Part shown: one piece after another, positions 2,166 through 19,985 of the stretch
How the letters are laid out: each line of letters opens with the position of its first letter
Position numbering within the stretch: position 1 is the first letter of the stretch
Origin: Heterodontus francisci
Lineage: Eukaryota
Assembly (NCBI RefSeq): GCF_036365525.1
Contig: NC_090403.1
Location: forward strand, 47,927,095-47,991,094
Direction: 5' to 3'
Length of the DNA: 64,000 nt
Program-made: the position numbers and the translations under genes
Notes under the pieces: model-generated
The model's database searches: none
What the model saw: the letters and a program-made list of their open reading frames with translations, nothing else
What the model was told of the DNA's origin: nothing

Positions 2166-3050
2166 CAATTTCCCCACCACTGAATGAAAACAGGCAGACA
2201 ATCCAAATCAAGATTTTTTTTTAGCAACATTTCCTCATTGTAAACGGTACAACTCCACAAGTGGTCATTTGCGTGTGGCTATTTAATTTTGAGGAACACC
2301 ACTACCAGCCTGATGCTGCCCTTAAGTGACATCCACGCACGTGAATTTTCTATTAGGTACCAGTAGGTAAGCAAACAGAAGCAGGAACCCTGGTCCTTAC
2401 CCAAGCATTGGTGAAACCTTCGGAAGCACCTTTACAATGGCCCTAGTTTAGATCAGCTAACTCAAAACGAACTTGCTCCCCACAACCGACACCAAAGCAA
2501 CCTTCGTGACCTCATTGCTATGAAGTAAGCCCACTTCAAACGGATAGAGCCAAATGAGAGTTCACCTGTCTTCGATCCATCAGCACATTTTACCAGCGCA
2601 GTTAAACGTTACTGAATCGAAAAACTTTGCACTGACGTGACTTCAGGAAAGAGGATCTTTGGTGCAGTTTTAAGCGAATGCCATTAATTTGAAATGAACA
2701 AAAATCCCAACACGATGTAACTGAGCGCTGTCGGGGATAACTGGGGTAAGCGAATGACTCCTGATCAGAAACTGCACCGGACTGAGTCCCGATTTTAAAC
2801 CGGGCCAAATTTACAGTCCGGAGCAGAAATGTTCCCTAAATCAAACAGCAATGTTGAAATATAGTTTACAAACGTTTCGAGAGAAGAAAAAAAAATGCAT
2901 ATTTCATTTTTGATAGTCTCAATTCCAAAATGGAATTTATCTTTGCAATATTGCATTCGTTACTCAATAATTTACAGGTGATACATTGAACGACCCAGGG
3001 TTTGAAAGTGACAGGAACGCAGTTGAAATTGACCCCCTTGTTTTACTCAC

Positions 3051-3220
3051 GTGCATTTCCAGCAGCATTTGAATGTTATTCCAGATTTGAAATGCAAAGT
3101 TCTTGTTTCTTTCCACTCCGTCCCGGAACTCCGGCGGCAACTGGTCGCCCGAAATCTCCAAGGGCAAGGTTGGAGCAGCCCAGAGACTGTTTTGCAGCCA
3201 AGAGAACAGCATGAAGAGAG
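3051..3220 (-). CDS. csf3: G-CSF (CSF3)-like cytokine, exon 2 (end of signal peptide and helix A)
   Basis: Acceptor tccttgtcatccccAG and donor CAC|GTGAGT; 170 nt, phase 1 to 0. APTLPLEISGDQLPPEFRDGVERNKNFAFQI resembles the chicken G-CSF/cMGF N-terminus (APLAELSGD..DFQLFLHKNLEFTRKI, from memory). Confidence 0.8.
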
Positions 3221-3586
3221 CTGGGGATGACAAGGACGAGAGTGCGGTTACAAGATCAACGGGGATGTCCGCAGCAGGCAACGTGTCGCAAGTCTGGGCT
3301 GAGTTTTACATTTTCCTTTCTCGGCTTTATCTTCTCCCTCTCTTACCCATCATCTCTCCCCTCTACTTATGTTGATGCCCCTCTCTTGTTGCCACGCTAT
3401 TTCTCCCATTCCCCATCGTTTGCCTGGAACTGTATCCTCATCTCTTTCTGGCACCACAATATTACACGTCATCACACTCCAGGCCAATGAGGAAGCAGAC
3501 ACTATACTACTTATAAAAGTTCTTTTTTGGAAAAAATATAGCCGATTATTAATAACCCGGCCCTTACAGGTTAAACACATACATAC

Positions 3587-4425: not shown

Positions 4426-5199
4426 CCTTAGGGTACAAACTCGGCAAGTCCACACGAGGAGTGAAGGAGGTGCAACAAAAGGTGGAGTTCTTTAGATAAG
4501 TAGAGAACTTGAAATTAAAACAAGACTTTAAAAAGTGCAACATTATGAATACAGGAATAATAACACAAAATGAATCAAGAACACAATGGGAAATTTAGTG
4601 AGAAAGTAAAACAGATTAGAAAAGCTGAGGAGGTACAAAGAAAGACTGTCAGGTAATGTAAAGAGACGTTGTAAATGTCTTTACAAACATATAAGTAAAA
4701 TAATAGCTTAAAGGTAGAGAGGTAAAAAGGAAATCTTGTGATGAAAGGATGGTGGATGTATTAAAATGGCTTAGAAAAGTGTGTTAGTGGGAATTCAAGG
4801 ATTGAAGGGATGGAGGTGAGGCAATTAGGATAATTATACAGAAGCGAGAAGTTCTGAAAACATTACAGAACTTAAAGTGGAAAAGTGCACCTTAGATGCT
4901 TATACTATGGTAGTGATTAAGGGATAATTGTCAGATAATTGTAACTGCAGTCTCCGTCAGGGACCATTGTTGGGACTATTCTCTTGTCATTATCTAGGAA
5001 TGATCTGCAACTGGTTATATGGGATACAATATCAAAATTCAAACACAAAAATAGGGAGGGACTAAAGAAATTGGCCTTTTTGTAGCACATGAAGGCTAAG
5101 AGGCAATCTGGTAGAGGTCTTCAAATTATGAGGGGTAAACTAGGAAAAAAAGTGCTATTTCCATTGGTCGATGAGCAAATGCTGCTTTGCTTTAGATGG

Positions 5200-6220: not shown

Positions 6221-6227
6221 TGCAAGT

Positions 6228-6566
6228 TGTTGTGTGATTGCCTTTGAGAGTGATGTTCCTTTAAGATCTTAGTATGCTAATGAGCCATGTGCCAGGATGC
6301 AGTCATGTGACTCAGAGCCAGAGTCACTCTGTAACTGTAACGCCTAGAGGCTGGTCCTGTATATAGTTAGCTCTGTACTGTATATATTAGTTTAGCTGTA
6401 ATAAACCTGTTAGAGATCTTCAACCACCTGGTCTCCACACATCTCATTTATGTTAGCTTCAGTGATTGGGAAGGAATCAAAAAAATGGGAGTACTCACCA
6501 TGGGAAGGAGTAGAAAAAGGAATCCAAAGGGAAAAGTAATGTGGGTTTTAATATATAAAACCATCA
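6228..6566 (+). repeat. 5' LTR, with its last ~30 bp replaced by a 111-bp copy of the 3' flank
   Basis: 6228-6454 matches 9191-9417 with about 19 mismatches counted by eye; terminal CA at 6565-6566 abuts the PBS. Confidence 0.85.
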
Positions 6567-7332
6567 TGGTGGCAGCTGTGGTGAGAAGACAGAATTTAAG
6601 ATTGAAGGCCACAGGGAAAACTGCTTTAAAAACTGCCTCCCTACAGCTAAAAGGGAGAAAGTAAAATAAAATACTGGCCCAAACAGCGAAAGAAAGAAAC
6701 ACCTACCTCAAGCTGTAGAAGACAGAGTGCTGAACGACAGGCTGCAAATCAATCACTGCAATCGGGTGAGTCATTGTCCCAATGGTCCAGGAATCCCTGT
6801 TGAAAGAAAGCTTTGAGATGCTTGCAAAGTTGATTTTTTTAAAGGCTCAGTAAAAGAAAAAAACAGGGAAAACCCAATCTCTATCTCAGGCTGATTGATT
6901 GTTTTCAAAGACTCCCCTCCCAGGCTGATTGAAGTCGGTGCCATTACAGGAGGCGTCCGACAGCAAAAAATGCAGGAATCCTCCAGCTTGCAGCTAAAGC
7001 TTTAAAAAAAATCATCAAACCACGTAAACACAAAAAGCTTTCATTCACGCAGACAGAGTTTTTAAAAACTCATAAAACCACCCAAGCCTGAAGAATTGCC
7101 TATTGAACAGCTGTATAAACAAACTGAAGCAGAAAAAAGCACTTGAAATGCCTATTGCACATCTGTGTAAACAGACAGACAAGAGTGCTGGAAGCTAGAT
7201 AAACAGACAAGCACTGGCAAACACCTGCTCCTGTCCATCAAAGCAGCCAAGAGAGTTGTTTTTAAAGGGAAAACAGCACAGACTCATAGAATAAGGCTTA
7301 AAGCAGGTTTTAAGCAAAAGAACAGCAGGAAT

Positions 7333-8560
7333 ATGGATACCAAATTTCCCAGCATGAACTGGAAGGCCATGGATATCCTATCCAAGTGCCAACTTTTCAA
7401 AGGATGCAGTTATGCTGCACAGATCAAATAATTGTAGAACCAGAAAAGCAAGCTGTAAAAATACTAATAGCAATTGGAAATGAGGGATTACACAGAATCA
7501 ATACCTCAGGCTTATCTGACAAGGACCAGAAAGATACCACAAAGATAGGGAAAATGCTGGAAGATCAGCTCAGATTAAGAGCGAATTTTCAAATTCATCG
7601 CCTGGAATTGATGTCCACATTCAACCGCCACAGGAATCAATAGACCTGTTTGTCAGTAGATGCTGTAGTAAGGGCACTGTATGCGATTTTTCAGAAGCTG
7701 AGCTTTCAGACAGAGTAATAGAGCTGGTGATTGTATCAAAACCTATTGAAGCGTTTCAGAAGGACCTCTTGGGGAAAAAGAAAGGCCGCAGCATTGATGC
7801 ACTATTGGAAGATGGCAGGAAATAGGAAGCCATTGTAGCTGGACAACAGCATCTGCAAGCAAAGTTGCAGCCAACAGTATCGGCATGACAACCAGGTCAA
7901 AAAGAGCAAGCAAGATGTGTGGTAAGTGTGGTTGGTCCCACTCACCACGACGTTGTCCTGCATTTCAAGACCTGTGCAAGGCATGCGGTGCAAAAGGTCA
8001 CTGGACCCACCTATGCAGGAAATCTGGCTCCAAAGATGCAGCCAGAAGCCACAGTAGGACACAAGCAAGGGGCAAGGAAAGCAGCAGAGACCTGCGTAAA
8101 TGTAATCCGATACATGAAGTCCATTGTGAAACGGACCTGAGACAAGACTCAGAGAGAAGCAATTCCCAGGCAAAAGATGAACAGGTGTTCCTTATTGTGA
8201 ACCTGACACATCATGTTGATGAAGTCAAATAACTGGAAGCTTTCGCCACAATTAACATCATGTGCCCAAAGAAAGCTGGCAAATATACACCGGCATTAGT
8301 GCAAATATCCTACCAGTCCGAATACTCAAAGATATGTGCTGGAGTCATTGGAAATCAATGATACAACTGACAACTGCCAAGTTATCTGCATACAATGGGT
8401 AACCCATCCCATGCAGTGGCACACTGGCAATGCAATGCAGATATGGCAAGTTAGCGTGGAAACTACAAACATTCTACCTAGTAGATGCGAGCAGAGCAGC
8501 AGTGGCAGGACTACCAGCGTGTAAGCACCTCAACATCATCTACAACCACGAGAGCATTGC
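7333..8560 (+). pseudogene. Disrupted Gypsy gag and aspartic protease
   Basis: Gag motif ESIDLFVSR..CDF and twin zinc knuckles CGKCGWSH..RCPA..CKACGAKGHWTHLC. Protease remnant (D)TGISANILP...FYLVD..AVAGLPACKHLNII. Several stops and frameshifts; the catalytic Asp codon appears deleted near 8288. Confidence 0.8.
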
Positions 8561-8569
8561 CAAGGGGAA

Positions 8570-9052
8570 ATCTCCAAGGACCAGAACCCTCTCGCAGACT
8601 CTGACCAGCATCAAACGGTGCAGTCTGGAAACTCAGCAACAGCACAACTACGCCACACCTTCACTTCTGCTATCTAGAGAACCGCCAGCACCACGCGAGC
8701 CAGAACTGACAGGTACCGCCATGAGGCCACGTACTCTTCCCCAAACAAGTCCTTGACCATGAGCCCAAGCCCTTCAGATGTGGAGGATGAGGAGAGGCGA
8801 TGGACATGCAGTGCCTTGAGGAGGCAGAGGAGGAATGAGTTGAAGCATTGTCTGTTGGCTCTTCGAGATGAGGTGCTGGAACTTTCCAAGAATGATAAGG
8901 CCTCAAAAGTGGTCATCTTAAGAAAAGCAACACAGTATGTTAGCAGGCTGAAGGCAGAGCAACAGAAACTGAATGCAGAGAGGGAGAAACTTCAGAAAAA
9001 TCGGCAACAGCTGAGACGCAAATTCCCCGAGCAAGAGTTGTCAAACCACTGA
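8570..9052 (+). pseudogene. Captured Myc-family C-terminal fragment (Myc box IV and bHLH-LZ)
   Basis: KRCSLETQQQHNYATPS (Myc box IV) is in the protease frame. After a one-base frameshift near 8753 comes [49 protein letters not shown] plus a leucine zipper, then a stop at 9052. Confidence 0.9.
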
Positions 9053-9190
9053 GACGATATATGGACTTTTGAGCTGCTATATTTTTAAATTTCACAATCT
9101 CTATCCATGTGTAAATAATTTTGATGTTATTTAATTTTATGTGTATTTTTACTTTTAGCATACGAGGCTTATCTTTGGAAAGAAAGGGGA

Positions 9191-9448
9191 TGTTGTGTGA
9201 TTGCCTTTAAGAGTGATGTCCCTCGGAGATCTTAGTATGCTAATGAGCTACGTGCCAAGATGCAGCCATGTGACTCAGAGCCAGAGTCACTCTGTAACTG
9301 TAACACCTAGAGGCAGGTCCTATAAATAGTTAGCTTTGTAGTGTATATATTAGGTTAGCTGTAATAAATCTGTTAGAGATCTTCAACCAACTGGACTCCA
9401 CACATCTCATTTATGTTGCATCAGACAACATAAAAAGAACTCATTACA
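9191..9448 (+). repeat. 3' LTR (258 bp)
   Basis: TG...CA ends, preceded by the polypurine tract; contains TATAAA and AATAAA. Confidence 0.9.
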
Positions 9449-10419
9449 CAAGCAATGGAATCTCTAGCTTCAGTGATTGGGAAGGAATCAAAAAAATGGG
9501 AGTACTCACCATGGGAAGGAGTAGAAAAAGGAATCCAAAGGGAAAAGTAATGTGGATTTTAATATATAAAACCATTCGGAAAGAAGCCTGGGAGTTCAGG
9601 TCTTCTGATTTACTATTTCTGACAGTCCAGTGGATGTTTCTGTTGAAGATGAAGGACCGGATTGTTTTTCATCTAATCATGATTTTTATTAATTACCATC
9701 TTATATGTACCTGGAAAGTTACTAAACGATGCTTTTGACCATTTTCTACAGAAACCTGTTAAAAAAATGTATATTGGTTGGAGCTGCATGGTAGGAAGAT
9801 TTGAAATTCAATTAAACATTCCTTTCCAGTTTATTTTGCAAATTAAGGTTTGGAAGTTCTTCTGAAACCTTGTTCTCTTCTTTTTGATTTTATTTTCACT
9901 AACCATGCTCTATACGAGGACATATTTTCTTGTTCTCATTGCAGAAATTAACAAAGAATTGAATTGTAAAACTTATCTTCAATGTACCCAGGCAATTCAG
10001 TTGATTCAGGCAATTCAGGCAATGATAGTTTAAGATTTCAGAAGGTTTTCATCTATACTAAATCAGTGAGTTTGTTCCCTCAGTGGTAAAGTTCCAATAT
10101 AGGCAGGTGTAAGTTTGAGAAGTTTTTTTTTGTACTCAATTGGGACATTCAACCCATTGGATGGAAGTGAGCTTGACTGTACAATACTTCAAGAATGGCA
10201 ACTGCAGTTGACTTTTATTTCGATATATTAATACATAAGATACAGGTAATATTTGGTCTGATGATGAAATTCATGGACAGGATGGAATCTAAAACAAGAT
10301 ATCACCGTGAACATAAGAGTTGTTTTTTAATAAAAATATTGTGCATTGATGATATTTATTACCTTAGCTTATTACCTTAGTTTTTCTTCACTCCTGCTAT
10401 AAAGGTACTGAGTCTTACT

Positions 10420-10640
10420 ATAATAAAAACAAGAAATGCTGGAACCACTCAGCAGGTCTGGCAGCATCTGTGGAGAGAGAAGCAGAGTTAACGTTTCGGG
10501 TCAGTGACCCTTCTTCGGAACTGACCCGAAACGTTAACTCTGCTTCCCTTTCCACAGATGCTGCCAGACCTGCTGAGTGGTTCCAGCATTTCTTGTTTTT
10601 ATTTCAGATTTCCAGCATCTGCAGTGTTTCGCTTTTATAT
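10420..10640. mobile_element. Penelope-derived palindromic element
   Basis: About 80-bp near-perfect inverted repeat centred near 10512, containing GACCCGAAACGTTAAC; same family as 51604-51848. Confidence 0.7.
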
Positions 10641-18455: not shown

Positions 18456-18884
18456 GCTCATCCAAATTAATATCGCTCCACACATGAACCTAAACAGAAG
18501 GTCACGTAACATAGTCTGGATGACATCACAGTGGAGTTCCATTCCTGTTCCCCACAAGCATACACATGCCAAGTGAGCAGTATGCTAGCTAACCCACTCA
18601 TCTTGGTTCCTCATAGTGAAACTCCCAATTAATACCACTCTGCTTTTCCCTCTCCCCCTGGTGTATGTGTGTGTGTAAACTCTCCCAAAATTTTCTGACT
18701 CACTTCCTCAAGCATTATTCTACTTCTCGATTTTAATTCAACTTCCAGGGAATTCAGGCTTGAACTCAGTCAGAAGCTGAATAAGTCAGCATGTCTTGGT
18801 GGGGAAAGAAAGATAAAATAATATTGGTCTTCCTGCATGTACTGACCACTACAGTTCTGTCTTGTGGTGTATATATCTAATGAC

Positions 18885-19985
18885 TAATACTGAAGAAGAA
18901 ATTTTCCTCCACACAAGATCAAGGTTGTTCAACCTTGCCCGTCTAAGAGTGAAATCCAAAGTACGGAAAGTCCTCATCAGGGAACTCCTCTTTGCTGACG
19001 ATGCTGCTTTAACATCTCACACTGGAGAGTGCCTGCAGAGTCTCATCGACAGGTTTGCGGCTGCCTGCAATGAATTTGGCCTAACCATCAGCCTCAAGAA
19101 AACAAACATCATGGGGCAGGACGTCAGAAATGCTCCATCCATCAATATCGGTGACCACACTCTGGAAGTGGTTCAAGAGTTCACCTACCTAGGCTCAACT
19201 ATCACCAGTAACCTGTCTCTCGATGCAGAAATCAACAAGCGCATGGGAAAGGCTTCCACTGCTATGTCCAGACTGGCCAAGAGAGTGTGGGAAAATGGCG
19301 CACTGACACGGAACACAAAAGTCCAAGTGTATCAAGCCTGTGTCCTCAGTACCTTGCTCTCTGGCAGTGAGGCCTGGACAACGTATGTCAGCCAAGAACG
19401 ACGTCTCAATTCATTCCATCCTCGCTGCCTCCGGAGAATACTTGGCATCAGGTGGCAGGACCGTATCTCCAACACAGAAGTCCTCGAGGCGGCCAACATC
19501 CCCAGCTTATACACACTACTGAGTCAGCGGCGCTTGAGATGGCTTGGCCATGTGAGCCACATGGGTGATGGCAGGATCCCCAAAGACACAGTGTACAGCG
19601 AGCTTGCCACTGGTATCAGACCTACCGGCCGTCCATGTCTCCGCTTTAAAGACGTCTGCAAACGCGACATGAAGTCCTGTGACATTGATCACAAGTCGTG
19701 GGAGTCAGTTGCCAGTGATCGCCAGAGCTAGCGGGCAGCCATAAAGGCGGGGCTAAAGTGTGGCGAGTCGAAGAGACTTAGCAGTTGGCAGGAACAAAGA
19801 CAGAAGCGCAAGGGGAGAGCCAACTGTGTAACAGCCCTGACAAACAAATTTTTCTGCAGCACCTGTGGAAGAGCCTGTCACTCTAGAATTGGCCTTTATA
19901 GCCACTCCAGGCGCTGCTCCACAAACCACTGACCACCTCCAGGCGCTTACCCATTGTCTCTTGAGATAAGGAGGCCAAAGAATTG
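18885..19985 (+). mobile_element. 5'-truncated RTE-clade LINE (BovB-like)
   Basis: LLFADDAAL, FTYLGS, RLRWLGHV, GRP..RFKD and a C-terminal CxxC..H..C knuckle; one internal stop at 19729-19731. Confidence 0.9.

Follow-up and report, generated by a model that had tools for sequence, protein, structure and literature searches.

LTR elements in animals are reported to produce retrocopies of partial mRNAs through template switching at microsimilarities, and in this LTR-mediated retroposition (Tan et al. 2016, PMC5131818) the partial mRNA replaces internal ORFs, often in frame, with about 6 nt of microsimilarity at both switch points, and the product can move as a non-autonomous element. Crocodilian endogenous retroviruses (ERVs) have been described that captured KIT-ligand and nectin3 mRNAs (Chong et al. 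2014, PMC4299795), and MC29 and its relatives are described as defective genomes with a gag-myc fusion and a dependence on helpers (PMC13431497). Host-mRNA capture by LTR elements and the gag-myc fusion are thus already known, and the Gypsy family bearing a piece of mych that we report here is one for which we found no description. An earlier reading of this DNA from its letters alone (the sequence-only reading) had been aware of no such case in a vertebrate Gypsy element. Our literature search, mainly of openly readable papers, likewise returned no published description of the family, which may be catalogued in repeat libraries without comment; mRNA capture by vertebrate LTR elements is in print (PMC5131818, PMC4299795).

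The window, that is, the whole 64,000-nucleotide stretch of Heterodontus francisci DNA analysed here, contains at 6228-9448 a single, decayed member of a non-autonomous Ty3/Gypsy family (Table 1), with the hallmarks of such LTR elements: TG...CA LTR ends, a primer-binding site (PBS), a polypurine tract (PPT) and a target-site duplication.

Table 1. Features of the mych-bearing element and its borders, in window positions.
Feature	Position	Strand	Basis or remark
5′ target-site duplication, CAAGT	6223..6227	+	4/5 letters agree with 9449-9453
5′ LTR, 3′ end replaced	6228..6454	+	227 nt, 92% to 9191-9417
Copy of 3′ flank (9465-9575) replacing 5′ LTR end	6454..6564	+	111 nt, 99% alike
Primer-binding site	6567..6584	+	same motif directly 3′ of 5′ LTR in other copies
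5′ untranslated leader	6585..7332	+	without long frame; 72-83% alike in other copies
gag, two Cys-His knuckles (7918-8016); frame changes and stops	7333..8190	+	Pfam, polyprotein comparison
Probable retropepsin-type protease; catalytic motif damaged in window copy	8191..8551	+	motif in other copies; position before RT
Captured mych exon-3 fragment: Myc box IV (~8634), NLS region, bHLH (8795-8953), leucine zipper	8552..9024	+	89.2% to host gene L031 over 474 nt; Pfam; tree
Integrase-tail remnant, out of frame in short subfamily	9025..9075	+	matches parent's tail; spacing 59 nt in 19/21 measured
Polypurine tract	9177..9190	+	same in parent L063
3′ LTR, one GTCATGTGAC-type site also present in parent LTR	9191..9448	+	repeat comparison, other copies
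3′ target-site duplication, CAAGC	9449..9453	+	4/5 agreement with 5′ side

Other copies define a family LTR of about 258 nt (TGTTG...TTACA) that ends at 9448 in the window, and the primer-binding site is presumably of the tRNA-Leu type; no tRNA gene was found in the window, nor a second family copy elsewhere in its 64 kb. The LTR-PBS-gag-protease-Myc-PPT-LTR order proposed by the sequence-only reading is there, and the Myc sequence does lie wholly between the LTRs, but the last ~30 nt of the 5′ LTR have been replaced by the flank copy, which leaves this copy slightly short of complete, and the target-site duplication is inexact (Table 1). This 111-nt insert was not seen in the other copies and is a later, copy-specific event; being 99% like its source, it should be younger than the insertion of the element, and it resembles templated repair. 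Elsewhere in the window, a near-perfect 84-nt inverted repeat (10422-10603) consists of two head-to-head copies of a short repeat, and 18817-19728 and other long frames appear by eye to be LINE-like reverse-transcriptase/endonuclease fragments.

Pfam matches in the window include a gag zinc knuckle (PF13917, E 2e-5) and an HLH domain (PF00010, E 3.5e-10), with a weak match for Myc box IV (PF01056, E 0.02). A full Gypsy polyprotein aligned to the window over gag and protease only, which bears out the proposed lack of reverse transcriptase (RT) and integrase except for a remnant of ~50 nt of integrase tail after the Myc piece. The reading frames of this copy are broken, including the protease motif, and there is a frame change near 8690 within the Myc piece. 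The putative retropepsin-type protease is recognised from its relatives: an IDTG[AS] motif lies within an open frame in 7 of 20 fetched copies, DTG is invariant or nearly so in 32 protease homologues, and the homologous region precedes RT in full polyproteins, a position between gag and RT that fits a retropepsin. Direct domain matches are weak (Pfam aspartyl protease in 3/32 homologues at E 0.03; Ddi1 in the PDB at E 0.24).

The captured fragment is a piece of a host Myc gene, as had been proposed, and phylogeny identifies the donor as the lineage's own copy of mych, which is the fourth Myc paralogue, and not as c-myc. Among cellular proteins the closest are shark sequences named 'myelocytomatosis oncogene homolog' (mych), and the host mych gene (L031, at G000:C16), whose two coding exons are separated by a 1.7-kb intron, shares 87-91% DNA identity with the element pieces. 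In a 22-row protein tree, eight element rows and the mych of the same genome formed a clade with support 99/98, separate from the mych of other sharks and from the genome's two other Myc genes. Since the elements group with their own genome's mych and apart from that of other sharks, the capture occurred within this lineage.

A Myc_N search recovered three two-exon Myc genes (C5, C3 and C16), and no MYCL-like gene was among the 118 matches listed (119 of 1,624 candidates scored). Element-derived gene models carry the label Heterodontus francisci: seven 'N-myc-like' or 'myc-like' models (P0001, P0002, P0023-P0025, P0027 and P0029) group with the element and mych rather than with MYCN or MYC, and several of them show further in-frame deletions. 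Many 'N-myc-like' gene models of this species are explained in this way, as element copies and not as Myc paralogues. One further model of 1,346 aa (P0022) joins two TRIM-like units to an apparently element-derived Myc piece and is either an annotation chimaera or an exonised copy.

All 21 short copies, of the window type, span host positions ~2837-3310, in exon 3 only. On the proposed absence of an intron the window copy is therefore uninformative, and it is the longer relatives that demonstrate the loss. These also include the final ~190 nt of exon 2, fused to exon 3 (4/4 in one set and 12/13 in another), and the spacing between the two exons equals that of the spliced host message (240 nt) in 6 of 14 copies and lies within 3 nt of it in 13 of 14 (17 tested). 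The 1.7-kb intron is thus missing from the long copies, which shows that the template was an mRNA.

A parent element, L063, located by pattern, has the order gag-PR-RT-RH-IN-tail-PPT-LTR and no mych; it shares gag, protease, integrase tail and LTR with the Myc elements at 74-87% and matches P0114, in which RVT_1, RNase H and integrase follow in order, collinearly over residues 138-1244. An earlier candidate partner (L036-L041) was set aside as a sister Gypsy family with RT, its gag and protease being only 64-75% alike, and a search with the integrase tail yielded Myc-bearing copies at 13/13 new loci. The search for a pol-bearing partner recommended by the sequence-only reading was answered by the L063 type. 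Parent and host have in common the microhomologies GGATGCA (7 nt) at the 5′ switch point and CAAATT (6 nt) at the 3′ one, both codon-phased. The inserted piece extends from roughly codon 118 through the last residues of the zipper, in phase at both ends; it displaces RNase H, the integrase core and all of RT except its first ~25 codons. Poly-A and an inner duplication are absent at the capture; the internal ORF is replaced, with microsimilarity at both switch points. Natural frames cross the junctions as 321 aa of protease-Myc (L012, in which a single frame spans the end of gag, protease and Myc), 308 aa of RT start-Myc (L033) and 294 aa of Myc-integrase tail (L032).

The exon join and the comparison with the parent uphold the idea of a capture from mRNA, in place of pol, in a Gypsy element. 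On this evidence a mych message, already spliced, was taken up by a Ty3/Gypsy element in exchange for most of pol, and the derivative went on to more than 1,000 sites, shortening stepwise to the window form, with the protease fused straight to exon 3. We consider this origin and the mobilisation, presumably in trans, highly probable. The mRNA would have been packaged in a particle, with two template switches at the microhomologies during reverse transcription, as the junctions suggest. To judge from its anatomy, the derivative would have supplied its own Gag and protease and borrowed RT and integrase from the parent.

Junction patterns, allowing up to 2 mismatches, counted 862 short-form, 160 long-form and 977 pol-bearing parent sites in the genome, with 0 for each control; because the patterns were not equally strict, the counts are minima and can be compared only approximately. 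Junction DNA searched against the 6.0-Gb genome gave 5,072 first-look candidates, 40 of which were scored and yielded 39 other full-length matches at 86-88%. Twenty of these 39 other loci were analysed in full, the copies being chosen as best matches and not randomly, and together with the window they provided 12 copies with two usable LTRs. A 5-bp target duplication with at least 4/5 matches was found in eight of the 12, all different; one had 3 matches and three did not match, one of these because it belongs to a tandem array. That the same junction recurs at 862 dispersed sites with distinct target duplications confirms the transposing, multi-copy family that had been supposed, and excludes the case of a single junction left by a processed pseudogene. 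It is accordingly extremely improbable that the structure reflects one processed pseudogene in an old element, a segmental duplication or an assembly error, despite the odd duplication in the 5′ LTR of the window copy: besides the dispersed copies, both short-form junctions are bridged by contigs of a second organism (X5 records 11 and 15).

A contig of a third organism (X8) covers the Myc part, with no bridging piece among those listed, and run X1, which may be the assembly's own sample, supports the left junction; the flanks had no cover in X5, X8 and X9. Summed contig depth was left out as a measure of copy number; that X5 and X9 are RNA runs is a guess, and their Myc depth includes a contribution from host mych contigs. 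As weak negatives, none of the 150 listed protease relatives had a Myc match, and Myc fusions in three protein searches bore a single species label among the matches listed. Some loci had irregular structures: L021 has a 3′ LTR followed by another primer-binding site (4802-5066), a tandem array; L045 has an LTR piece joined directly to the Myc part (754-1044); and two long-form junctions identical in their letters on one contig (G000:C40:1267942 and C40:2531675) are probably a segmental duplication.

LTR pairs diverge by 0.066-0.168 (K2P, median 0.105, n=12; L026, whose 5′ LTR is mostly missing, was left out) and, in three long copies, by 0.11-0.17 over short overlaps. Shark substitution rates are slow, which would place this divergence at tens of millions of years or more, on an uncalibrated rate. 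The copies closest to the host mych exon have 90-92% identity among the best 39 matches, none exceeding 92%, and the best parent RT matches have 87-89%. Given these low identities, the Myc-bearing and parent families both look extinct, with the Myc family decaying.

The copies fall into forms with nested losses. Long-A has the RT start, the exon 2 part, exon 3 and a long integrase tail; form B has the tail shortened in frame; in form C the tail is cut, and the frame shifts, immediately behind the zipper; and in the short form the protease is joined directly to exon 3, with 72 nt between protease and Myc anchors in 21/21. From these losses we infer the order long-A, B, C, short. As far as and including the tail of the long form, the modal distance at each junction preserves the frame, and the sole out-of-frame junction lies after the zipper, the frame stopping 5-17 codons later. 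The protease tree places short copies beside parent L056 and long ones beside parents L057, L059 and L060, and a constraint holding the 32 Myc-bearing rows together against five parents was rejected (p-AU 0.0097). The Myc-bearing copies are thus not one protease clade, which points to exchange with helpers, in which the 5′ half of the element would have been swapped with parent lineages. One capture followed by such exchange is the simplest reading; the exchange rests on one parent row (L056) in the short clade and on 305 nt.

What the Myc piece did can be approached through what it kept. In every long copy examined the host match begins at 890 or later, so that the capture point is downstream of Myc boxes I and II; these boxes form the activation domain (PMC7226237). 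The short form has no EEEIDVV (WDR5) box. The NLS Lys is kept in 10/14 long-A and 2/21 short copies, the E-box-reading His in 12/14 and 1/21, and the E-box-reading Glu in 3/14 and 0/21 (4/38 overall); the Glu site is Lys or Arg in 18/21 short copies, so that the E-box readers were mostly swapped for basic residues, and the third Arg is kept in 38/38. Enrichment of the lost residues at conserved sites was not significant (6/11, p 0.085).

These losses bear on whether the family underwent oncogene transduction as in MC29, with the Myc fusion driving proliferation of carrier cells and thereby spreading the element. The layout is that of a defective gag-myc virus with a helper (PMC13431497), the earliest long copies retain His, Glu, NLS and WDR5 box, and mych is reported to be anti-apoptotic in early zebrafish embryos (PMC3958507). 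Yet boxes I and II were left behind, the most numerous subfamily lost its DNA-reading residues, and the element is without an envelope gene. Such transduction is most improbable for the family as a whole, and for the short form it can be taken as largely refuted. The proposed analogy with oncogene transduction accordingly survives for the gag-myc-like layout and is not supported for function, given a mych donor, uncaptured boxes I/II and the loss of His, Glu and NLS Lys. By comparison, v-myc of MC29 keeps its activation domain.

Selection was assessed against 40 neutral simulations, the first simulation set having pooled fixed differences and the later one being the valid test. Gag was under purifying selection during the spread (0/40 simulations as low under either model). 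For the Myc part, 8 and 1 of 40 simulations were as low in the short form and 4 and 4 of 40 in the long form, which is not significant alone; the protease, expected to be constrained, gave 4 and 3 of 40, and since its signal is as weak as that of the Myc part, the power of the test is low. Shared Myc-part changes lean synonymous in two subfamilies (16N/18S and 8N/9S, against 162/66 and 182/59 for single changes), and within-family Myc dN/dS is 0.47 and 0.59 compared with 0.70-0.78 in shifted frames. A raw shared-versus-single test (pooled p 7e-5) was discarded because, as the neutral simulations revealed, recurrent transitions bias it. Net long-versus-short divergence (dN 0.019, dS 0.037) was not significant, and constraint specific to the zipper gave no sign. 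HLH/zipper hydrophobic residues are nevertheless kept at 87% and backbone Arg at 98%, versus an average of 82%. Selection on the Myc part is only suggestive.

There is about an even chance, in our judgement, that the Myc piece was translated as a polyprotein tail and served mainly as in-frame filler, with loss of its harmful features. A Myc fragment without the activation domain would interfere with host Myc-Max, so that lineages stripped of the WDR5 box, NLS Lys and E-box His/Glu may have been tolerated or favoured. The synonymous lean of the shared changes, the retention of Arg and a dN/dS below that of shifted frames speak against mere filler and fit some protein constraint. They would also fit a possible but doubtful alternative, in which the protease released a Myc bHLH-zipper that bound Max, was blind to the E-box and did not activate, acting as a dominant negative on Myc/Max in embryo or germ line and helping the element through less silencing or a permissive cell state. 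The frame kept at 5/5 junctions up to and through the Myc piece of the long form, the HLH/zipper and Arg retention above average and the purifying trend all agree with such a decoy, as does the report that human Myc without His359 and Glu363, the same two residues, cannot support growth and, on over-expression, acts as a dominant negative (10.1101/2020.05.04.076190). Against it, the selection signal is not significant relative to the neutral model, the short form lost the NLS Lys, and the LTR has no canonical E-box beyond those of the parent. Autoregulation of the LTR through two canonical E-boxes was itself rejected: site 1 is E-box-like in only 6/29 short-form LTRs, and site 2 is CATGTG in 22/29 and never CACATG, and is also present in parent LTRs. 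We regard only tentatively, too, the fuller proposal that a captured proto-oncogene became an accessory protein, a protease-released Myc bHLH-zipper that turned step by step into an E-box-blind decoy binding Max and let a defective family match the copy number of its parent.

Alternatively, the zipper and basic helix could have replaced RT/integrase structurally, as a dimerisation or nucleic-acid-binding module for protease activation or particle assembly. Zippers can drive dimerisation of retroviral proteases, and here the protease is fused directly in frame to the Myc piece (21/21 short copies) and the former E-box readers are mostly basic. Myc zippers homodimerise poorly, however, and the zipper shows no constraint of its own; we judge this reuse unlikely.

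In more than 1,000 germ-line copies of an envelope-less Gypsy element, the family records the event that gives rise to acutely transforming retroviruses. One genome contains the donor gene, the parent element, the two junctions and the graded derivatives, so that it can be tested directly whether a captured proto-oncogene is retained, disarmed or given a new use in the course of a long spread.

Compared with known systems, the motifs of the backbone suggest the Mag clade of Ty3/Gypsy: gag and pol share one frame, there are two Cys-His knuckles, a 5-bp duplication and a TRSGR-type tail, and relatives have the order PR-RT-RH-IN. The capture is of the LTR-mediated retroposition kind, but the cases in section 5 of that paper are young, with one or few insertion sites, whereas the mych family has more than 1,000 copies, a subfamily series and a polyprotein fusion at both ends (PMC5131818). 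With the crocodilian ERVs it has in common an old germ-line family in a non-mammalian vertebrate and a growth-related host mRNA; those are retroviruses described in 9 and 6 copies, with KIT-ligand as an extra ORF, in contrast to an envelope-less Gypsy element in which a transcription-factor fragment replaces pol (PMC4299795). Like the Myc HEA mutant and Omomyc, which are dominant negative in their setting, it has a bHLH-zipper lacking activation or E-box contacts, but those proteins are engineered and the basic substitutions of the shark element are natural (10.1101/2020.05.04.076190, PMC7226237). Finally, MC29 is described as an infectious transforming retrovirus with c-myc, whereas the mych family is without boxes I/II and has lost E-box reading (PMC13431497). 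The in-frame gag-...-myc fusion replacing pol is common to both (protease-Myc in frame in 21/21); a retroviral backbone with an enveloped helper is absent, since in L063 the integrase tail is followed by PPT and LTR, which leaves no space for env, and so is a Myc with activation domain and E-box reading, boxes I/II being uncaptured and Glu kept in so few copies.
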